From: Nodosilinea sp. LEGE 07088
GTDB taxonomy: Bacteria > Cyanobacteriota > Cyanobacteriia > Phormidesmidales > Phormidesmidaceae
NCBI RefSeq assembly: GCF_015207395.1
Contig: NZ_JADEWX010000057.1
Span: 7,235-31,234, forward strand
Direction of reading: 5' to 3'
DNA: 24,000 nt
Shown in pieces: positions 3,193 through 21,557 of the stretch. Under the pieces are notes generated by a model. The model was not told the DNA's origin and did not search any database. It worked only from the letters and a program-made list of their open reading frames with translations. Numbering within the stretch: position 1 is the stretch's first letter; every line of letters begins with the position of its first letter. Made by a program: the position numbers and the translations under genes.

Positions 3193-3543
3193 TTACGGAG
3201 TCACCTGGCTGAGAGCGTCTTTGATTTGATCGATCGGCGAGGTGGCTTGTTTGGAGTTTTCGGGGTAGTTCATCTGGCTGACATCGGCATCTTTCTGCAC
3301 TTCGTTAAGCCCTTTGTTGGCCCGGTCAATCACCCGATCGCCCTTGAGCGCATTCTCGGGCTGCACAGATTTCTCGGCCTCATTGTACACACCGTCGAGT
3401 TTGGCCGTGCCCTGATCGGGCTGGCTGGGGGTACTGCCGATGGCCAGGGCCGCAGGGCTAGCCATCGACAGCATTAGAATGCAGGAAAGAGCGATCGCCA
3501 GGTTACGCACCCAGGTCGCCACGGCAGCAAATACAGGCTTCAT
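3193..3543 (-). CDS. Small secreted or lumenal hypothetical protein (116 aa from MKPVF...)
   Basis: The internal ATG at 3543 gives a classical signal peptide (MKPVFAAVATWVRNLAIALSCILMLSMASPAALA), followed by a hydrophilic Asp/Lys/Gln-rich mature part. No family recognised. Confidence 0.5.
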   Translation of the reverse strand: MKPVFAAVATWVRNLAIALSCILMLSMASPAALAIGSTPSQPDQGTAKLDGVYNEAEKSVQPENALKGDRVIDRANKGLNEVQKDADVSQMNYPENSKQATSPIDQIKDALSQVTP

Positions 3544-3757
3544 AGTAGTCTCCAAAATCGGGCAAGAAAGCGACCCCAGCAACTGGGAACTGCACAGAGC
3601 GCCCGGTTGCTAAGACTCTTTTGTTTTACCGATTTAGACCTTGCGCCTATATCATCTGATGGACAGAGAAGTAGGGCAGAGATTTTGGCCAAGGCCCTAT
3701 GCCTTTGGGTAGGGAAGTGACTCTATTGGCCTACGCGGCTGGTTGGAGATTATGTCC

Positions 3758-5907: not shown

Positions 5908-6987
5908 TTAGCTCTGAATTGTCGGGGCCAGATAGGCAACCGGAGTAGCTGGGCCGTTGGCTAAATCGAGGGGAAAGTTATGGGCATTGCGTTCATGCAT
6001 GACCTCAAAGCCCAGATTGGCTCGGTTGATCACGTCAGCCCAGCTGGGCAGCACTCGACCCTGGGAATCTAAAATCGAGTGGTTAAAGTTAAATCCATTT
6101 AGGTTAAAGGCCATGGTGCTAATGCCCAGGGCAACAAACCAAATACAGACTACGGGCCAGGCCGCCAGAAAAAAGTGCAGCCAGCGAGAGTTGTTGAAGC
6201 TAGCGTACTGAAAAATTAGGCGGCCAAAGTAGCCGTGAGCCGCAACAATATTGTAGGTTTCTTCCTCTTGGCCGAACTTGTAGCCGGAGTTTTGAGATTC
6301 ATTGTCGGTGGTTTCTCGAATCAGGCTTGAGGTCACTAAAGACCCATGCATGGCAGAAAACAGAGAACCTCCCAGAACTCCTGCGACCCCCAGCATGTGA
6401 AAGGGATGCATCAAGATATTGTGCTCCGCCTGAAACACAAACATAAAGTTGAACGTGCCGCTAATCCCCATGGGCAATCCATCGGAAAAGCTACCCTGAC
6501 CGATGGGGTAAATCAAAAATACCGAGGTGGTAGCCGCAACGGGGGCACTGTAGGCCACGCAAATCCAGGGGCGCATGCCCAGGCGGTAGCTCAGTTCCCA
6601 CTCTCGGCCCAGATAGCAGAGCAGGGCTGGAATGTAGTGGAAGGCAATCATTTGATAGGGGCCACCGTTGTAGAGCCATTCATCTAGGGTGGCGGCCTCC
6701 CAGATCGGGTAAAAGTGCAGCCCAATGGCGTTAGATGACGGCACCACAGCAGCGGTAATAATGTTGTTGCCGTACAGCAGTGAACCCGACAGGGGCTCGC
6801 GAATGCCGTCGATGTCTACCGGAGGAGCAGCAATAAAGGCGGTGACAAAAACCACCGTTGAAACGCCTAGTAAAGGAATCATCAGCACGCCAAACCAGCC
6901 AATATAAAGCCGATTTTCAATGCTAGTGATCCACTGGCAGAACTGCTCCCAGGTACTGTTGTCCTGGCGTTGGAGAGTTGTAGTCAT
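5908..6987 (-). CDS. psbA3: Photosystem II D1 protein, far-red (FaRLiP) paralog
   Basis: Full-length D1 (MTTTLQRQ...). It retains the Mn4Ca ligand positions: FSDGLPMG (D170), [12 protein letters not shown] (E189/H190) and [15 protein letters not shown] (H332/E333/H337/D342/A344), plus a C-terminal extension. It is embedded in the FaRLiP array. Confidence 0.93.
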
Positions 6988-7050: not shown

Positions 7051-7072
7051 AATTCGCCGGTCAGATACAAAT

Positions 7073-7101
7073 GTAGGGGCTTTGCAGTGCAAAGCCCCTA
7101 C
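7073..7101 (-). terminator. Perfect GC-rich palindrome (hairpin) between the 48-codon ORF and psbA3
   Basis: GTAGGGGCTTTGCA-G-TGCAAAGCCCCTAC, a 14-bp stem. A partial third arm, TGCAAAGCCCCTA, follows at 7111-7123. Confidence 0.5.
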
Positions 7102-7130
7102 AACCGGCACTGCAAAGCCCCTATGGTGTT

Positions 7131-7277
7131 CTAGCTGCGATCGCTGGGGTAGGTTCTATACCCGTACCAAATAAAGGCAATGCAGCCCAGGGCAAATACC
7201 AGCAGGCTCAGAAAAATGCCGCTGGCGGTGGCAGAGATTTGGCCTTCACCGTAGGCGAGATAAAAGAGTGGCAGCAT
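7131..7277 (-). CDS. Unlisted 48-aa single-TM protein, a candidate small PSII-associated subunit
   Basis: Hand translation gives MLPLFYLAYGEGQISATASGIFLSLLVFALGCIAFIWYGYRTYPSDRS, with stop TAG at 7131-7133. GAGG lies 6-9 nt upstream of the ATG (7275-7277). It is on the same strand, 60 nt after psbH2 and before psbA3. It is below the ORF-track length cut-off. Confidence 0.5.
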   Translation of the reverse strand: MLPLFYLAYGEGQISATASGIFLSLLVFALGCIAFIWYGYRTYPSDRS

Positions 7278-12039: not shown

Positions 12040-12107
12040 AACGTAGTCCTCTGGGTTCAGAATGATGGTTTGAAAGCTAGATATAGGAATAGGCGAGTAC
12101 CTAGTAC

Positions 12108-12205
12108 TGAAAGGCAGAAGGCAGAGGCAGAGGACGCATCCCAGATATCACAAGGGTTTCCGCGTTAGTAAATAGGTGAGTTATTGCCGCCTCAGAATGC
12201 CTGGC
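12108..12205 (+). repeat. Dispersed repeat copy 1: short GGCAGAR array plus a conserved ~55-nt tail
   Basis: TGAAAGGCAGAAGGCAGAGGCAGAGG, then AGGGTTTCCGCGTTAGTAAATAGGTGAGTTATTGCCGCC. It aligns with 18787-18946 at roughly 70% identity over the tail by eye. Confidence 0.6.
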
Positions 12206-12995: not shown

Positions 12996-15383
12996 TCATG
13001 GTGAATTGGCCTCCGAGGGCTGGGCCGCTGTCGCCATCGGCTCGGGCTTTGCTGCCGGAGGCGAGGACGGATGCCCGTTGTGGGCTGCAGCCTCCGGGGC
13101 GAGGTTGGGTACTGGCGATGGTGCCATTGACGCTGGCTCCGCCTGGCGATCCAGCACCGCTACGGCAGAAGCACTCTGGGCGGTACTCTGGGCAGCACTC
13201 TGGGCGGCACTCTGGGCGGCACTCTGGGCAGTACTCTGGGCGGCCATCCACTCGCCAGCGATGGCGGGGTTGTGGCGGGGCTTGCCCCAGGCGGTGGGGC
13301 CCTGGGGCGATCGCAGGGCATAGCCCCGGGGGGTCAGGTAGCGATCGTAGGGCACCGTTTCATCCCCAAATACCTGGGCGTATTCAGGGCTGTCGATGAT
13401 GGCATCGACCAGGGCATAAAAGCCCGCTTTACCGGCGATGTCGTAGTAGCGGTTGAGCTCTGCGCGGCCATAGGTGGGGCGGCCCAGCAGGCGGCGGTGA
13501 ATGCATTCAATTGACTTAGTGATGTACAGGTTTTCCCAATACATCTGTCGAAAGGCACGGGAGTAGGCGAGCTGGCGGACAAAGTCTCGCAGGGTAATCT
13601 CGCCGCCCTTGAGTTTGGTTTCGGCCACATCCTGCCGCTGGCTGTCGAACACCTCGCGGCCAAACACCTGACGGTAGGCTCCGAGAATGACAGCATCCAT
13701 AGAGTGATGGGCAAGATTCACGTTGGGGCCCTGGGGATGGCTACCCCGCTCGGGCTGGTGGGAGGGCTCCAGCTTAAACACCGACTGGCCAAACAGCCCC
13801 GGCACTCGGCCCAGGTGGGCTGAGGCATTGGGCTCAACGTGCCCATTGTGTCGCCGACCATTCTGCAGCCCGCTGCTGATTAAAATGCGGCGGCTAGTCG
13901 AGCTAAAGTGGGCCGGTTGGGCACTGGGGTGGCGGGTTTCGTCGGGGAAGATCGCCCCAAACTGAATCTCTAAGGGGTCGTTGCCCACGCCGTAGGGGTG
14001 CTGATCGGGCAGCGGTTTTTGGGCGCGGGCAAAGGTGGTGACAAACTGAGGTACCTTGCGGGCCGGGGCGCTGTACTTAAATAGGTCAAGCTGCGGCCCC
14101 CAGTTGCGGCATTCCTGCGCCTCTATCCCTAGACCCCTGAGGTAGGGTACGGTCTCTTCGCCAAAGTAGTCGGCGTACTCCTGGGAGTCGACCAGGGCAT
14201 CGACCAGGGCGGGCAGGCCCCCCTCGGAGATCACGTCGAAGTAGGTCTGAAATTCTTCTAGGCAGCTCAGCCCGCGACCCAAGAAATGCCGATGGGCCAG
14301 CTCAATCACCCGGCTAATCGTAAACGGCTCGTAGAACTCGCGCCGGTAGAGCCGCGATTTGCCCAGGTGCCGCACAAACTCTTTCATGGAATACAAGCCG
14401 CTTCTGAGCTTTGACTCCAGATCGCTCGCGGCCAAGCCGTAGGCCTGGGTTACATCGCGCTCAAGCACCTGGCGGTAGGCGGCGCGAATGGCCTCCTGAA
14501 GTTCGGTCTCCGACAGCCCTGGTTTAACGACTAGCTTGGGCGTCGGCAGCGCGCTCTGGTAATAGCTCTGGGGCAGGGGCTGCCCAGGGTGGAGTTTCGA
14601 CACGCCAATGCGCAGCCGATCGTCGGGCTTTTCCACCAGGTAGTCGGTGATCAGTACCTCAAAGTAGCGCTTGACCAGGGCGGCGGCATTGCTATCGGGC
14701 AGCAGGCACTGACCCGCCTTCCACTGCATTTCTCGCAGGGCGACGACGGTGGCCAGCGTCACATCTTCGGGAATGACGCCCCGCAACCCCCGAGTGTTGA
14801 CGGTGATAATGCTGGTGTCGCCCGCCACCATGGCGTAGGTGACGTAGCGCAAAAACCAGGCCAGATCGCGCATCGAGCGCTTCATCCGCGCCGTGCCGTA
14901 CTTGGCAATGCTGATGGTGCGAAATCGACTGGGAACGCTGGGCCGACCCTGGGCAAAGAGTGACGCGATCTGATCCACCAGGGTATTGGTAGAGTCGATT
15001 GACTGAGGCTCTTTGAACTGGGTTATTGAGGTGCCCTTGCCACGTCGGTGGCGGACGTTAGCCGACAAATAGTCTTCGCCGATGTAATATCTTGAACCGG
15101 GCATGCCGATGGGGTCGGTGGGCCGTTCGAGATAAGCCATCGGCGAACCGCCGGTAAAAATACGGTTGGCCCCTGCGGCCACAATTTTGTCGGCGTTTTG
15201 CGTCAGCGCGGCAGCGATTTCCAGGCGCTTTTGCCCCGACTCAAAAAAGGCCGAGAGGGTTTTGAGCTCGCTGGATTTTGGGTAGCGATCGCGCTGTTCG
15301 GCCTCGGCAATTACGGCCGTGGGCACGGTATGAAATGCTTGCGGGTGAGTAACTGGGCTGCCCCCGTTGGTCCGATTAGTCAT
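12996..15383 (-). CDS. apcE2: Far-red phycobilisome core-membrane linker with two REP domains (start at ATG 15383)
   Basis: The N-terminus MTNRTNGGSPVTHPQAFHTVP aligns with the canonical ApcE start. It has a phycobiliprotein-like domain with a loop insertion and two linker REP domains (YRQVLERD...VDSQEYADYFGEETVPY and YRQVFGRE...IDSPEYAQVFGDETVPY). The upstream TTG at 15416 is less likely. Confidence 0.9.
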   Translation of the reverse strand: MTNRTNGGSPVTHPQAFHTVPTAVIAEAEQRDRYPKSSELKTLSAFFESGQKRLEIAAALTQNADKIVAAGANRIFTGGSPMAYLERPTDPIGMPGSRYYIGEDYLSANVRHRRGKGTSITQFKEPQSIDSTNTLVDQIASLFAQGRPSVPSRFRTISIAKYGTARMKRSMRDLAWFLRYVTYAMVAGDTSIITVNTRGLRGVIPEDVTLATVVALREMQWKAGQCLLPDSNAAALVKRYFEVLITDYLVEKPDDRLRIGVSKLHPGQPLPQSYYQSALPTPKLVVKPGLSETELQEAIRAAYRQVLERDVTQAYGLAASDLESKLRSGLYSMKEFVRHLGKSRLYRREFYEPFTISRVIELAHRHFLGRGLSCLEEFQTYFDVISEGGLPALVDALVDSQEYADYFGEETVPYLRGLGIEAQECRNWGPQLDLFKYSAPARKVPQFVTTFARAQKPLPDQHPYGVGNDPLEIQFGAIFPDETRHPSAQPAHFSSTSRRILISSGLQNGRRHNGHVEPNASAHLGRVPGLFGQSVFKLEPSHQPERGSHPQGPNVNLAHHSMDAVILGAYRQVFGREVFDSQRQDVAETKLKGGEITLRDFVRQLAYSRAFRQMYWENLYITKSIECIHRRLLGRPTYGRAELNRYYDIAGKAGFYALVDAIIDSPEYAQVFGDETVPYDRYLTPRGYALRSPQGPTAWGKPRHNPAIAGEWMAAQSTAQSAAQSAAQSAAQSTAQSASAVAVLDRQAEPASMAPSPVPNLAPEAAAHNGHPSSPPAAKPEPMATAAQPSEANSP
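13173..13244 (-). repeat. Six tandem 12-nt units (ACTCTGGGCRGY on the plus strand) encoding (AQSA/T)n in the apcE2 tail
   Basis: Counted directly: units at 13173, 13185, 13197, 13209, 13221 and 13233. They translate as AAQSTAQSAAQSAAQSAAQSTAQSA. Confidence 0.9.
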
Positions 15384-15960: not shown

Positions 15961-16075
15961 GGAGTATCGACTTAAAGCGGGATAAATCTCTGAGGCAGCC
16001 GTCAGAAGTCAGGAGCCAAGAATCGAGAGCTAGGAGCGCGCAGCTTTCTGCCCTCTGCCTTCTGTCTTCTGTCTT
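15961..16075 (+). repeat. Dispersed intergenic repeat copy A (AAAGCGGG...CAGCCGTCAGAAG...) followed by an inverted heptamer-like tract
   Basis: 15961-16040 aligns with the reverse complement of 17590-17672. 16046-16075 (TTCTGCCCTCTGCCTTCTGTCTTCTGTCTT) is the complement orientation of the GGCAGAA-type repeat. Confidence 0.6.
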
Positions 16076-16877: not shown

Positions 16878-17354
16878 TTAGGACAACGAGTGAATAATCA
16901 AATCAAAGTAAGGGGCGACTTCAGCGCCATCTTCTTCACTCATTAGAGACATGGCTTCCTCTTTGAGGCAGCGCATACACTCGGCAATATTCCGAATCGG
17001 AATTTCCAGGTTGTTGTACATTTCTTTAATGCCAACGGTGCCAATTTCTTCGAGGGGTCGCTCACTACCTGCCAAAATTGAATAGGCAATTAGTCGTACA
17101 TACCAGCCTTGATCGCGCTGACAGGAGGCTGTTTTACGCTCGTTGCCGCAGTTGCTGGGGGTGTTAGGACAGCGTTCCCAAAATCTGGCGCTGCCGTTTT
17201 GAACGATTCGCTGCTCGTTTTCGGCTAGGATTTTGGCGATGCGAATGCGCTGCTCTCCGGTTTTTACGAAATCTTGGTAGATGCGTATTTCCTTAGGAGC
17301 CGGATAACGAGCCTCACTATCTGCACTCAAGATTAGTTCTGTCACCAAACTCAT
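16878..17354 (-). CDS. apcD5: Far-red allophycocyanin alpha-type paralog, first gene of the minus-strand array
   Basis: MSLVTELILSADSEARYPAPKEI. The bilin Cys is retained (TASCQRDQGWYVRL). 158 aa. The paralog number is assigned from gene order. Confidence 0.85.
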   Translation of the reverse strand: MSLVTELILSADSEARYPAPKEIRIYQDFVKTGEQRIRIAKILAENEQRIVQNGSARFWERCPNTPSNCGNERKTASCQRDQGWYVRLIAYSILAGSERPLEEIGTVGIKEMYNNLEIPIRNIAECMRCLKEEAMSLMSEEDGAEVAPYFDLIIHSLS

Positions 17355-17428
17355 AATCTATTATCTCCAAGCGGGTTGACGAAGTGTTTGAAACTGTTGA
17401 ATAAATCTTCCGATCAAGGGTTGGTAGG

Positions 17429-17482
17429 AGAATAAGCGATAAAAATGAAGAACCTATGAAGCATGAATTTTGCTTCAAGAAA
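17429..17482 (-). promoter_or_regulatory. Candidate apcD5-operon promoter: TTCAT-N6-TTCAT, 10-nt spacer, then TATTCT (gene-sense), plus conserved upstream flank
   Basis: The plus strand reads AGAATA(17429-17434)-N10-ATGAAGAACCTATGAA(17445-17460). 17441-17460 is a 20/20 reverse-complement match to 20251-20270 upstream of chlF, in the same orientation and at similar distance from the start codon. Confidence 0.55.
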
Positions 17483-17577
17483 CTATATGCCTCGAGGATT
17501 TGACGGACGCAGCAGGAAGTCCAGGCAGATAGTCCGGGTATCAACATGATCTAGGGCAAGTCTGGGTGTGGGGATTT

Positions 17578-17672
17578 AGAAGCCAGGAGCCAGCAGGCCG
17601 CGCTCTCCTAACTCCTACTCCTGGCTTCTGACGGCTATCTAATAAATTTGCCCCGCTTTAAACCGATACCTT
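17578..17672 (+). repeat. Dispersed intergenic repeat copy B, inverted relative to copy A, with an internal 12-bp stem
   Basis: AGAAGCCAGGAG (17578-17589) pairs with CTCCTGGCTTCT (17618-17629). The segment CTTCTGACGGCTATCTAATAAATTTGCCCCGCTTTAAACCGATACC matches the reverse complement of 15961-16010. Confidence 0.6.
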
Positions 17673-17711
17673 TTCATACTGAGTACCGATAAGTAGCTGG
17701 GTTAATTCAAA

Positions 17712-17779
17712 TGTAGGATGGGTTAGCGATAGCGTAACCCATGCAGGTGTTGGGTTTCGTTCCTCAACCGCAACCTACA
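17712..17779. repeat. MITE-like small palindromic element with terminal inverted repeats
   Basis: TGTAGGATGGGTT...AACCGCAACCTACA termini (imperfect inverted repeat). The internal GGGTTAGCGATAGCGTAACCC and GTTGGGTTTCGTTCCTCAACC motifs resemble a repeat type I recall as widespread in cyanobacterial intergenic DNA. Confidence 0.45.
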
Positions 17780-17848: not shown

Positions 17849-17940
17849 CAATGATTGTCCTGGGTGTGGCCTAGGCGGCAGCGTCCTTCTCTGTTGTCCA
17901 GAAAGCCGCAGTAAACCCTATGCCAAAGAGGTCAATTTTT

Positions 17941-18783
17941 ATGCGCTATCGCACCTTGGTTGCTGTAGTTTTAGCCCTTTGCCTGGGGCTGATTACAGCG
18001 TGCAGCGGCAGCCCCCGAGCGGGAGATCAAGCTTTGAGCTATGACCAAATTAAAGGAAGCGGGTTGGCTAACCTATGCCCGCAAATTTCTGAAACCCGGC
18101 GAGATGCGATCGCCATTGCTCCTAATCAGTCCTACACCCTAGAGGAGATGTGTTTACAGCCCACCGCCTTCTTGGTTAAGCAGGAGCCGTTGGTCAAGCG
18201 CGCCAGCGCCAGCCAGGCCACCCAGTTTATGCCCACCAAGCCGCTGACCCGAGCTAGTTTTTCCATTGACCAGGTCAGTGGAGTATTAAAAGCCGATGCC
18301 GACGGTCGCCTGACCTTTATGGAACAAAGCGGCTTCGACTTTCAGCCGATTACGGTGCAACTCCCCGATGGCGAGCGCGTGCCGCTGCTCTTTTCTATCA
18401 AGGGGCTGGTGGCGCAAACGCTGGAAGCGGCCAAGAGCATCAACCCCTTAACCCAGTTCAGCGGCACCTTTCAGGTACCGGCCTACCGCACCGCAGGCTT
18501 TTTAGACCCCAAAGGGCGTGGGGTTATGGTGGGCTACGATGCCGCCGTAGGCTTACCCCCCCAGGCCGATAGTAAAGAGTTTCAGCGCTCGAATACAAAA
18601 GTCTTTGAGGTTGACGAAGGCACGTTGACCCTGCGGGTAGAGCGGGTAGACCAGGGTACCGGAGAAATCGCGGGGGTGTTTGAAAGCATTCAGCCCTCGG
18701 ATACCGACTTTGGCGCTAAAGATCCCATGGATGTCAAAATCCAGGGTGTTTTCTACGCCCGACTGAACTCAGAAATGGCCTAG
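17941..18783 (+). CDS. psbO: Photosystem II manganese-stabilising protein PsbO, cluster-encoded paralog with a lipobox-like signal peptide
   Basis: LSYDQIKGSGLANLCP...MCLQPTAFLVKQEP, DFQPITVQLPDGERVPLLFSIKGLVA, YRTAGFLDPKGRG and VKIQGVFYARL all match PsbO. The start is taken at ATG 17941 (AGAGG 9 nt upstream). The signal sequence ends LGLITAC. Confidence 0.88.
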   Translation: MRYRTLVAVVLALCLGLITACSGSPRAGDQALSYDQIKGSGLANLCPQISETRRDAIAIAPNQSYTLEEMCLQPTAFLVKQEPLVKRASASQATQFMPTKPLTRASFSIDQVSGVLKADADGRLTFMEQSGFDFQPITVQLPDGERVPLLFSIKGLVAQTLEAAKSINPLTQFSGTFQVPAYRTAGFLDPKGRGVMVGYDAAVGLPPQADSKEFQRSNTKVFEVDEGTLTLRVERVDQGTGEIAGVFESIQPSDTDFGAKDPMDVKIQGVFYARLNSEMA

Positions 18784-18786
18784 TTT

Positions 18787-18946
18787 TGAAAGGCAGAAGG
18801 CGGAAGGCAGAGGCAGAAGGCAGAAGGCAGAAGGCAGAAGGCAGAAGGCAGAAGGCAGAAGCAGAAGGCAGAACGGGAATTCCAGGTCTGACCAGGGTTT
18901 TCGCGTTAGTCAACCGGTGGGCTACTGCCGCCGTAGAGCACTAGCC
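18787..18946 (+). repeat. About 12 tandem GGCAGAA heptamers (STRR-like) plus a conserved tail: dispersed repeat copy 2
   Basis: 18790-18873 is a near-perfect 7-nt-period array starting 4 nt after the psbO stop. The tail AGGGTTTTCGCGTTAGTCAACCGGTGGGCTACTGCCGCC matches copy 1 at 12155-12195. Confidence 0.85.
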
Positions 18947-19044
18947 CCAGAGAAGTTGCCAAAGATGAGTCCCTCACAGACTTAGGCCCAGCAACATATT
19001 TTCGATAGCACGTTTTACTGCTGTGATAATTATGGAGAACCCCC

Positions 19045-19179
19045 ATGGCTAACTACAACGTTGATCAGCCGCAGTCATATCCTATCTTTACCGTGCGGTG
19101 GCTAGCGGTTCACACCCTGGCTGTCCCGACGGTGTTTTTCTTGGGTGCGATCGCGGCAATGCAGTTTGTCCAGCGCTAG
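19045..19179 (+). CDS. psbF: Cytochrome b559 beta subunit paralog (orphan psbF, 44 aa), absent from the ORF track
   Basis: Hand translation gives [44 protein letters not shown], with stop TAG at 19177-19179. It closely matches the canonical PsbF core ([29 protein letters not shown]) and includes the heme-ligand His. GGAGA lies 6 nt upstream of the ATG. No psbE, psbL or psbJ is adjacent. Confidence 0.85.
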
Positions 19180-19217: not shown

Positions 19218-19246
19218 AAGGTGCTCAGGCATGGCCTGAGCACCTT
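19218..19246. terminator. Terminator hairpin between convergent psbF and psbV, possibly bidirectional
   Basis: AAGGTGCTCAGGC-ATG-GCCTGAGCACCTT, a 13-bp perfect stem. It is flanked by AAAAA on the left, which gives a U-tract for the minus-strand psbV transcript, and by GGTTTAT on the right. Confidence 0.75.
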
Positions 19247-19269: not shown

Positions 19270-19785
19270 TTAGCGTCCAGGCTTGCCGCTGGCCCAGATG
19301 CGACCAATAATATTGGGCTGGGCTAACACATAGCCAGAGATATCCGCTAAATCTTGATCGGTGAGCGTCTTCATTCTGGGGAATAAATCGACCCTGGCCG
19401 TGGAGGGATGAAGTTCTTCCAGTGACCCTAGGCCGTCGTAGGTGGTGGGATTTTTCAAGTAGTCAATAATTCCTTCTAAATTGTCGCGAGCAGGGAGTGC
19501 TAAGGCCAGAGTCTGTGGGGCCAGACTAATATCTGGATTGGGCTTAGTAATGCCGTCTAAATGGCAAGCAGAGCAGGTGCCGTTAAATTTCTTGCGACCG
19601 TTGGCAAGCTGTTGTTCGGTCAAGGTGATGACATCACCCGATGCGTTGAGCGGCACCGTGCGGGCCGACTCGCTGATTTCAATAGCGAGGGCGGCTTTAG
19701 TGGGTATTTGAAAAGCTATAACTATAGCTAGGCCAACTATCAGGAGGATTCTTCCTGGCATAAATTTTTCAAAAAATTGAGCCAT
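19270..19785 (-). CDS. psbV: Cytochrome c-550 (PsbV) paralog
   Basis: Signal peptide, heme motif CSACH, DNLEGIIDYLKNPTTYDG and ELHPS (distal His) match PsbV. AAGGA lies 7 nt upstream of the ATG at 19785. Confidence 0.85.
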   Translation of the reverse strand: MAQFFEKFMPGRILLIVGLAIVIAFQIPTKAALAIEISESARTVPLNASGDVITLTEQQLANGRKKFNGTCSACHLDGITKPNPDISLAPQTLALALPARDNLEGIIDYLKNPTTYDGLGSLEELHPSTARVDLFPRMKTLTDQDLADISGYVLAQPNIIGRIWASGKPGR

Positions 19786-19964: not shown

Positions 19965-20237
19965 CTGGAAGCGATCGCGCCAGCAGATTGGCGGGTACAT
20001 CCCATTTCTGTAAGTGTCTGCCTGATGGCCACAGGGGCAGGGATCCACGGTGCAGAGACTCGTTGGCTTAGGCAAACCCATCTCTATGTCTCCCCTATCT
20101 CTACCTCTCCTAGAAGGGAATGTTTACCCCGTTCTTTCACAGCTTGTCCTGAGCTAAATTTGGGGTGGAGGAAGTCCTTCATTTGCTTGGGCCAGAGAAC
20201 TTTCAACCCCTTAAATGGGCGTGTAACGTTCCTTAAA

Positions 20238-20282
20238 GCAGATTTTCACATTCATAGGTTCTTCATTTTTCTCTTCTAGGTT
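20238..20282 (+). promoter_or_regulatory. Candidate chlF promoter: TTCAT-N6-TTCAT, 10-nt spacer, then TAGGTT
   Basis: TTCATAGGTTCTTCAT(20251-20266)-N10-TAGGTT(20277-20282). 20251-20270 is identical to the reverse complement of 17441-17460. The flanking GCAGATTTTCACA resembles the apcD5 flank GCAAAATTCATGC. Confidence 0.55.
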
Positions 20283-20351
20283 AAGCAGTAATTGAGCACG
20301 GCCAACCCTGCGTTGGAGGGGGTGCCGTCAGTTTTGGTTGAGGAACTACTT

Positions 20352-21557
20352 ATGACCACACAGCTTGGTAGAACGGTTGCCATCAATCGTTCTAGCCAAC
20401 TTGAAGCCGCAGAGATAACTCGCCGCACACCGGCTGGTTTAGGGCGCAGACAAATTAACCCTTGGGAGCGCTTTTGTCGGTGGGTAACGAGTACTGAAAA
20501 CCGCATTTATGTTGGCTGGTTTGGGGTGCTTATGATACCCACGATGGCTACGGCTGCCACCGTGTTTGTTCTGGCCTTTATCGCCGCTCCAGCGGTAGAT
20601 ATGGATGGCACTGGGCGAGCCATTTCGGGCGCCCTGCTTGACGGTAATAACCTGATTAGTGGGGCCGTGGTGCCGACATCGGCGGCCATTGGGCTACATT
20701 TTTACCCCATTTGGGAGGCCGCCTCTTTGCAGGAATGGCTGACCAACGGTGGCCCCTATCAGCTGATCGTGCTGCACTTTGTGATTGGCATCATCAGCTA
20801 TCAAGATCGGGAGTGGGAGCTGAGCTATCGCCTGGGCATGCGCCCCTGGATTTCGCTGGCGTTTACGGCTCCGGTGGCGGCAGCGGTGTCGGTGCTGCTG
20901 ATTTATCCGGTGGGCCAGGGGAGTTTTTCTTCGGGTATGCCCCTGGGAATTTCCGGCACCTTCACCTTCATGCTGCAATTTCAGGCCGACCACAACATTC
21001 TGGCCAGCCCATTTCACCAGCTTGGGGTAATTGGCGTATTTGGCGGGTCGTTGCTCTGTGCGGCCCATGGTTCTCTGGTGACCTCGGCAGTTATTCGCCC
21101 GGGCGTTGGCGAAGCCTCTCGGGAGCATCGCCCCTTGGGGTGGAAGAAACCCGCCTGGGCCGTGAGACCCGGTCAAACCTATAGCTTTGACTATGCCCAA
21201 GCCCACCAGGAGAAGCTGCTCTGGCGAGGCATGAAATTTAAAGATTCGCGATCGCTGCACTTTTTCCTGGCCGCCTTTCCGGTTGCGGGGATTTGGTCGG
21301 CAGCGTTGGGAGTGGATATGGCCGCCTTTGGGTTTGATCGATTTTCGGTGGGCGGTGCCATGGAGAGCTATGCCCAAAAGACCGTGGTGCCCACCTGGGC
21401 CGACCTCGTAACCCAGGCCAACCAGGGCATTAAGGCCATTGAAGAGACAGACACCATGTCGGTTCCAATTTTGCTGAGTGCCGCCGCCGATCGCGCAGCA
21501 GCCGCTGCCGACGATGGGGGTCTGCTATTGCAGCAAGTCAGTGACCCCTTGGGCTAG
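20352..21557 (+). CDS. chlF: Chlorophyll f synthase (super-rogue D1, PsbA4/ChlF)
   Basis: D1 fold, but the Mn ligands are lost: FSSGMPLG replaces FSDGMPLG, QADHNIL replaces QAEHNIL, and no [14 protein letters not shown]-terminus is present. It has [10 protein letters not shown] (the QD motif) where D1 has GREWELSY. Start taken at ATG 20352 (MTTQLGR, GAGGA 7 nt upstream). Confidence 0.88.

Follow-up and report, generated by a model that had tools for sequence, protein, structure and literature searches.

The pho box of Escherichia coli, the operator of PhoB, consists of tandem 8-bp boxes with 3-bp linkers, placed 10 bp upstream of a TAN3T/A -10 hexamer (PMC1906773). Here we describe an element of similar layout in Nodosilinea sp. 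LEGE 07088, on a stretch of 24,000 nucleotides (contig NZ_JADEWX010000057.1, positions 7,235 to 31,234 of the forward strand) that we call the window and in whose numbering positions are given. The window is a Nodosilineales-type gene cluster for far-red light photoacclimation (FaRLiP). One copy of the element stands upstream of chlF and a second upstream of the apcD5 operon and, judged by its sequence, it is a conserved far-red-light promoter box before chlF and far-red antenna operons. It has in common with the pho box the direct repeats, the 11-bp period, the replacement of the -35 hexamer, a -10 hexamer 10 bp downstream and a candidate regulator with a Trans_reg_C domain. The two differ in the half-site, which is of the CTGTCA type in the pho box and CTTCAT here, and in an extra conserved module that lies about 12 bp upstream in the FaRLiP element. 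They differ also in the regulator: unlike PhoB, RfpB, whose binding we infer here, is a hybrid REC-winged helix-HPt(-REC) protein fed by a phytochrome phosphorelay.

Among light-colour responses, RcaC with its L-box (type 3) and CcaR with its G-box (type 2) work in phosphorelays made of a sensor, a small CheY-like protein and a complex response regulator (PMC5737509, PMC4390838). As in the reading proposed here for RfpB, both are winged-helix regulators that act on a short repeated box in photosynthetic antenna promoters. Their boxes differ from the FaRLiP box in sequence and in target genes, and RcaC both activates and represses. The L-box is a direct repeat of TTGTTA. In the source cited above on RcaC, it is termed an inverted motif. 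The Pho boxes of SphR (CTTAACCT, at least three tandem units) are likewise built of 8+3-bp units and are read by a regulator of the OmpR/PhoB family (PMC1906773). A CTTAA(A/G)-like string in the upstream module of the FaRLiP element recalls the SphR box, but it is single, not three phased units, and the likeness is probably coincidental.

Antonaru et al. (bioRxiv 10.1101/2024.05.15.594131) described a class of T-rich intergenic motifs, by their account specific to FaRLiP species, in which a variable gap of about 12 bp lies between a 5' and a 3' region. They found these motifs no more than 440 bp ahead of chlF, psbA3, psbO and, in Nodosilineales, apc, and proposed an interaction with RfpB. They distinguish a chlF form of about 61 bp, a long form of about 59 bp that includes apc in Nodosilineales, and a short form of 33 bp upstream of psbA3, rfpD and psbO. 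The copies in the window lie about 100 nt before chlF and apcD5, inside the distance that these authors give. In our alignments 61 nt separate the start of TGTAAC from the end of the -10 hexamer, and 33 nt the start of CTTCAT from the same end. Since these spans equal theirs, we take the two to be the same element; compared by text and span lengths, they show no structural difference. Direct repeats, tandem units, half-sites, an 11-bp period, a Pribnow box, sigma factors and a PhoB-type mechanism do not appear in the text of Antonaru et al. The motif class is therefore already known; the dissection into half-sites and a -10 hexamer presented here, which alone seems new, is a useful refinement of it, not a discovery. 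Our starting point was a sequence-only reading of the window, whose author was aware of no defined operator for RfpB, a statement that the 2024 proposal has made out of date; in 2023, Liu et al., the developers of the far-red-inducible chlF promoter, had reported the identification of RfpB-interacting motifs as still in progress (PMC10127269).

The 20-mer TTCATAGGTTCTTCATTTTT stands at 20251-20270 on the plus strand and has its exact reverse complement at 17441-17460, as first noticed in the sequence-only reading. No further match with up to three mismatches was found in the window, and none in 100 dinucleotide-preserving shuffles. The two copies are alike over 46 nt at 78% identity (17438-17483 and 20228-20273), in good agreement with the earlier estimate of about 45 nt, and each points to its own downstream gene, chlF followed by psaA2 in one case and the apcD5 operon in the other. 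The number of bases between the 20-mer and the start codon is 81 for chlF (ATG at 20352) and 86 for apcD5 (ATG at 17354), which replaces the 86-91 nt given before. The TTCAT pentamers begin at 20251 and 20262 in the plus-strand copy and at 17460 and 17449 in the minus-strand one, in each case with a spacing of 11 nt, and exactly 10 nt after the second pentamer comes a TAnnnT hexamer; all three observations had been made from the letters and are borne out. The features of the element are as follows. Loci are designated by L numbers, L001-L018 being the FaRLiP set, L019-L079 a control set of 61 non-FaRLiP cyanobacterial psbA loci (679 kb), and L104, L128, L171 and L173 FaRLiP clusters from a metagenome scan.

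20222-20238, plus strand: chlF 5' module (TGTAACGTTCCTTAAAG), predicted position about -66 to -50; 16 distinct instances of the chlF class give the consensus TGTaAcnTTTtnTaAAg, and the module corresponds to the 5' region conserved in the published chlF motif of about 61 bp
20250-20266, plus strand: chlF tandem-repeat core ATTCATAGGTTCTTCAT, with TTCAT at 20251-20255 and 20262-20266 and an 11-bp period; consensus cTTCATnaGTTCTTCAt
20267-20276, plus strand: T-rich 10-nt spacer from core to -10 hexamer, of the same length in 34 of 34 instances
20277-20282, plus strand: -10-like hexamer TAGGTT ahead of chlF
17485-17472, minus strand: 5' module of the 'long' motif of apcD5, TAGTTTCTTGAAGC; aGTTTnTTTAAGCG is conserved in the apcD5 copies of L001, L002, L003, L128 and L171
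17463-17467, minus strand: extra TTCAT 7 nt upstream of the first half-site; most copies of the apcD5 class have yTCAT here
17445-17461, minus strand: apcD5 tandem-repeat core CTTCATAGGTTCTTCAT, with half-sites 17460-17456 and 17449-17445; 43.7 bits
17434-17429, minus strand: -10-like hexamer TATTCT; TATTCT or TACTCT in 7 of 7 apcD5-class copies
7052-7019, minus strand: third, 'short' copy before psbA3, scoring 21.9 bits with the box matrix and ending 32 nt before the ATG at 6987

The third copy, weaker than the other two and not listed in the sequence-only reading, consists of the 3' block alone, the 5' module being absent, and matches the published short class of 33 bp before psbA3. Its first half-site is degenerate (TTCCC, 7050-7046) and its second half is intact (GGTTCTTCAT, with TTCAT at 7039-7035), followed by a -10-like TTCAAT at 7024-7019.

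The sequence-only reading had asked for the element to be sought in the clusters of other FaRLiP strains, and there the box was found at orthologous positions in several lineages. Upstream of the chlF orthologues of Nodosilinea-like, Leptolyngbya-like, Coleofasciculaceae, Nostoc and Calothrix genomes it is near letter-identical, and the chlF and apcD5 copies are both present in all four Nodosilineales loci and in the metagenome clusters L104, L128, L171 and L173. Within the two intergenic regions of the window (566 nt and 565 nt), only 20219-20304 and 17408-17488 align to relatives beyond L001, the closest of them, together with a few short extra segments that align to L001 alone; in these alignments, the two conserved stretches are a clear phylogenetic footprint. 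Orthologous copies align over 82-85 nt, compared with 46 nt for the paralogous pair of the window.

The anatomy of the box was derived from 34 distinct instances, located upstream of chlF, apcD5, psbA3 and psbO2 in FaRLiP loci of several cyanobacterial lineages, whose 3' block reads cTTCATnaGTTCTTCAtnTTTtTtnntTAttnT. The core CTTCAT-N5-CTTCAT aligns without gaps in the 34 instances with a period of 11 bp, and the block can be divided into a CTTCATnnkTT unit, a CTTCATnTTTT unit, 5 nt more and the hexamer. Although the hexamer columns were not used in the core search, TAnnnT begins exactly 10 nt past the core in 30 of the 34 instances, any other offset being found in at most 3 of 34. The remaining four, all facing psbO2, have TTnnAT at the same 10-nt offset. 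In the chlF class (16 instances), the 5' and 3' blocks are separated by about 11-12 poorly conserved positions.

A position matrix was built from the 34-nt 3' block and used with a cut-off of 18 bits, the first version of the matrix serving for the control comparison. It gave 28 matches in the 18 FaRLiP loci and none in the 61 control loci (679 kb). A search with the core only (CTTCATNNGTTCTTCA, 16 nt, up to two mismatches) yielded 45 matches in 264 kb of FaRLiP loci and 8 weak ones in the 679 kb of controls, and TTCA-TTCA pairs at 11-nt spacing were observed 30 times where 7.1 were expected from the control loci. A metagenome scan with the pattern TTCATNNGTTCTTCATN10TANNNT was discarded as a test of specificity. 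Its 17 specified bases do not suffice for so large a collection: the 120 loci that it returned were mostly chance matches in unrelated AT-rich DNA, the only FaRLiP clusters among them being L104, L128, L171 and L173. Specificity was measured on the cyanobacterial control loci instead. In five Nodosilineales clusters, a short box facing psbO2 stands back-to-back with the apcD5 box, about 51 bp from it, so that the two make a divergent promoter pair, at the following positions:

L002: apcD5 box at 1843, psbO2-facing box at 1896
L003: apcD5 box at 2580, psbO2-facing box at 2631
L006: apcD5 box at 3504, psbO2-facing box at 3554
L171: apcD5 box at 1843, psbO2-facing box at 1894
L173: apcD5 box at 6330, psbO2-facing box at 6381

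A psbO2-facing box sought in the window and in L001 gave nothing above 6 bits.

The distance from the box to the start codon ranges from about 97 to 491 or 502 nt in orthologues, about five-fold, with a few second copies up to 1043 nt away, whereas the orientation and the spacing between box and -10 hexamer are fixed, which suits a promoter better than a translation-linked element. A sigma-70 consensus scan detected no -35/-10 promoter and no TTGACA-like -35 at either copy, the -35 position being occupied by ATnnGT, as would be expected of promoters that depend on an activator. RNA folding of the two copies was no better than that of shuffled sequences (z = +1.37 and -1.86), and no Rfam family matched the element. 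Taken together, the anatomy, the missing -35 hexamer, the variable distance to the ATG and the lack of RNA structure point to a promoter in which an activator takes the place of the -35 hexamer.

The 5' module, TGTAAC-N-TTTyCyTAAAG, is found about 12 bp upstream in the chlF and apc copies but not in the psbA3 copy. Its probable role is to strengthen or tune activation. Read as a third half-site for RfpB, two turns of the helix upstream (TTTCCT/TTTCTT, at -21/-22), it agrees in just 4-5 of 6 bases. Two other descriptions of the module were tried and rejected. As a palindrome with compensatory changes (CTTTTATGAAAAG versus CTTCTGTGAAG), its arms pair, by eye, in a shifted register only, and as an NtcA/CRP-type GTA-N8-TAC site, it has TAA or TGA, not TAC, as the downstream arm.

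RfpB has been termed the master regulator of far-red photoacclimation since 2014-2015. In deletion mutants it behaved as an activator of all genes of the FaRLiP cluster, and deletion of rfpA, rfpB or rfpC left no FaRLiP gene derepressed (PMC4658448); by this genetic evidence, RfpB is needed for the cluster genes to be expressed. No other DNA-binding regulator has been reported from every FaRLiP cluster examined (PMC4390838). The window contains no rfp genes and, with rfpB outside it, the domains of the regulator were read in relatives. RfpB orthologues that adjoin rfpA in L010, L013, L017 and L011 consist of REC, Trans_reg_C (PF00486, E ~1e-23) and HPt domains, with a second REC after HPt outside the Nostocales, in agreement with the published descriptions (PMC4658448, PMC4390838). 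The link to OmpR/PhoB-class regulators, first suggested by the spacing of the pentamers, is thus matched by the winged helix of RfpB. Across the RfpB lineages compared, the winged-helix region LTPKEYxLLELFLRN...TVTAHIKGLRxKL is invariant, which agrees with the near-invariant half-site. The best solved matches of the DNA-binding domain are BaeR and PhoB (E ~1e-14), among them the entries 1GXP and 3T72, a PhoB-DNA and a PhoB-sigma-4-DNA complex.

From the anatomy of the element, its conservation, its specificity to FaRLiP loci as measured against the controls, and the domain class of RfpB, all of which are shown here, we consider it probable that we are dealing with a pho-box type of promoter that depends on RfpB. 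In far-red light, the RfpA-RfpC-RfpB phosphorelay would bring RfpB into its active state. An RfpB dimer would then bind head-to-tail, by its OmpR/PhoB-type winged helices, to the two TTCAT half-sites, the proposed dimer site upstream of chlF being the core at 20250-20266, which overlaps the -35 position. The CTTCATnnkTT and CTTCATnTTTT units would fill the place of the missing -35 hexamer, ending 10 bp upstream of TAnnnT, and bound RfpB would bring RNA polymerase to a promoter with no activity of its own. Transcription is predicted to start about 7 nt after the -10 hexamer, near 20288 for chlF, with a 5' untranslated region (UTR) at 20288-20351, near 17422 for apcD5 and at about 7012 for psbA3, the last two on the minus strand. 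With the chlF upstream region of Leptolyngbya JSC-1, far-red light gave a 30-fold induction in a host that carries RfpABC (PMC10127269).

The box was also found outside FaRLiP clusters. In the metagenome scan, a near-identical short box (ATTTATTTCTTCATTGGTTCTTCATTTTTGCTCTCTAGCTT) appeared at six cyanobacterial-looking loci (L085, L118, L156, L162, L166 and L186), where it precedes homologous small hypothetical open reading frames (ORFs). Homologues of one of these ORFs occur on contigs of metagenome-assembled genomes (L202-L204), and there a near-perfect box (L202 1671-1704, 33.7 bits; also in L203 and L204) heads a string of four genes. The first two are tiny ORFs, and the others encode a REC-wHTH-HPt-REC-GGDEF regulator and a PAS/GAF histidine kinase. 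The regulator shares 53% identity with Nostoc RfpB, including an unchanged TVTAHIKGLR segment of the winged helix, and the core of the kinase shares 61% identity with the RfpA core. No FaRLiP genes were seen in the flanks examined on any of the contigs that carry the box outside a cluster.

Several observations weigh against RfpB as the reader of the box or against the completeness of the model. The box beside an RfpB-like paralogue outside FaRLiP clusters means that RfpB need not be its sole reader. The regulator could be examined in relatives only, as rfpB is not in the window, and a literature search retrieved no electrophoretic mobility shift, footprint, chromatin immunoprecipitation or transcription-start data for RfpB. 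The matrix scan detected no box at psbO2, psbF2 or psbV2 of the window. What counts most against it, the chlF, apcD5 and psbA3 regions of Synechococcus PCC 7335, a member of the Nodosilineales, were not far-red-induced in Chlorogloeopsis PCC 9212, in which only the JSC-1 chlF region was induced (Liu et al. 2023, PMC10127269), suggesting that the box may not be sufficient or that its recognition is lineage-specific.

The same failure of the PCC 7335 regions in a host with functional RfpB, and the RfpB-like protein encoded downstream of the box outside the clusters, would fit a far-red box read by another factor, with RfpB acting indirectly. This could be the RfpB-like paralogue, the accessory response regulator RfpD, which Antonaru et al. 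give as a possible partner, or a dedicated sigma factor that uses TTCAT as a -35-type element. We hold such a reader to be rather unlikely. RfpB is the only DNA-binding regulator reported across the FaRLiP clusters examined (PMC4390838), deletion of rfpB abolishes expression of the cluster genes (PMC4658448), and the tandem 11-bp repeats suit its OmpR/PhoB-class domain; RfpD occurs in a subset of clusters only, according to the preprint of Antonaru et al., and no sigma factor gene was seen in the cluster. The position of the box over the -35 region would also be that of a repressor operator, which would keep the far-red genes silent in white light until far-red light relieves it. This is improbable, as the rfpA, rfpB and rfpC deletions brought no derepression (PMC4658448), the promoters have no -35 hexamer to occlude, and the geometry is that of pho-box activation.

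That the element is transcribed and acts in the 5' UTR as an RNA signal, for stability, processing or the binding of a small RNA or protein, would agree with its fixed orientation upstream of start codons and with the transcripts upstream of several FaRLiP genes noted by Liu et al. (PMC10127269). The failure to fold better than shuffles or to match Rfam, the conservation of the primary sequence and of the offset at which a -10-like hexamer follows, and the five-fold range of distances to the start codon make this very improbable. The two copies of the window might, lastly, be neutral and without regulatory function, left over from a recent duplication, a gene conversion or a small mobile repeat. 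Both share the variable core dinucleotide AG, which is found in the apcD5 class and missing in other chlF copies, and Antonaru et al. trace the apc motif back to a duplicated chlF motif. Against this, orthologous copies were kept across several lineages where their flanks were not, orthologues align over a longer stretch than the window paralogues, and the element has neither terminal repeats nor further copies elsewhere in the window; of all the readings weighed, we give this one the smallest chance. An RfpB-dependent promoter thus remains the reading that we prefer.

The gene order of the window is the same as in the Nodosilineales loci L001, L002, L003 and L006. The closest genome found is that of Nodosilinea sp. 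LEGE 07298 (L001), with identities of 81% for ChlF, 96% for ApcD5 and 96% for PsaA2. The genes next to the boxes are the following:

5908-6987, minus strand: psbA3, ATG at 6987, then ftsH
7131-7277, minus strand: 48-codon ORF, candidate psbH2', downstream of psbH2 and fitting the published psbH2'
16878-17354, minus strand: apcD5, ATG at 17354, head of the apc-psb far-red operon, which reaches psbH2/psbH2'
17920-18783, plus strand: psbO2, between the chlF and apcD5 boxes
19045-19179, plus strand: putative psbF2, 44-codon ORF between psbO2 and psbV2
19270-19785, minus strand: psbV2, between the two boxes
20352-21557, plus strand: chlF (psbA4), ATG at 20352, first gene of the proposed regulated operon
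21604 to the window end, plus strand: psaA2, after chlF in the same proposed operon

The names chlF and apcD5 given in the sequence-only reading hold. The gene chlF encodes a divergent paralogue of PsbA, which falls below the psbA score cut-off and has the ChlF-specific YQDREWE 'QD' site, and apcD5 encodes a divergent alpha subunit of allophycocyanin. The apcD5 gene is followed by apcB2-apcD2-apcE2-apcD3-psbD3-psbC2-psbB2-psbH2, all on the minus strand. A perfect hairpin with a 15-bp stem (TGTAGGGGCTTTGCA-C-TGCAAAGCCCCTACA) at 7072-7102, after psbH2' and directly before the psbA3 box, is likely the terminator of this apc-psb operon. The product of the 44-codon ORF looks like a cytochrome b559 beta subunit, hence the name of far-red accessory psbF2; a sigma-70-like match with an extended -10 lies ahead of it at 19002-19030. 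Directly after psbV2, a strong terminator-like hairpin of 13 pairs (8 G-C) followed by a T-rich tail was found at 19218-19246 on the minus strand.

Other repeats of the window were recorded as well. Arrays of the heptamer GCAGAAG or its complement occupy three intergenic spots (18790-18873, 16043-16075 and 12104-12139) and look like an ordinary cyanobacterial short tandem repeat. In the 3' part of apcE2 on the minus strand, seven tandem copies of the 12-nt unit GCACTCTGGGCG (13171-13254) would encode a low-complexity stretch near the C-terminus. A 52-nt inverted repeat of 81% identity (15964-16015 and 17618-17669) stands in sense orientation before two genes, preceding apcD2 by 39 nt and psbO2 by 251 nt; the element contains CCCGCTTTAA(A/G), and a short-word BLAST search of related loci returned no match. 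Also upstream of psbO2, the 40 nt at 17702-17741 are 85% identical to L001 5447-5486, which belongs to a different intergenic region (psbV2-chlF) of Nodosilinea LEGE 07298, and may be another small dispersed element.

The dissection of the box adds to the known motif a precise and falsifiable model, in which two 11-bp units stand in for the -35 hexamer, 10 bp separate them from the -10 hexamer, and an upstream module is optional. It tells experimenters which 33-61 bp, and which bases and spacings within them, matter, and it could provide a minimal far-red-inducible promoter for cyanobacterial engineering. More tentatively, and with the odds rather against it, CTTCAT-N5-CTTCAT-N10-TAnnnT could be the shared operator code of a wider family of RfpB-like hybrid regulators that extends beyond FaRLiP. 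The 61-bp chlF form and the 33-bp psbA3 form of the window would in that case grade promoter strength. The box on L202-L204 may belong to an RfpB-like circuit with the same operator code, or else the RfpB regulon may extend to these genes outside the cluster; if the wider code is real, they would form a light-sensing circuit, uncharacterised so far and possibly autoregulated, that shares the far-red regulon or cross-talks with it.

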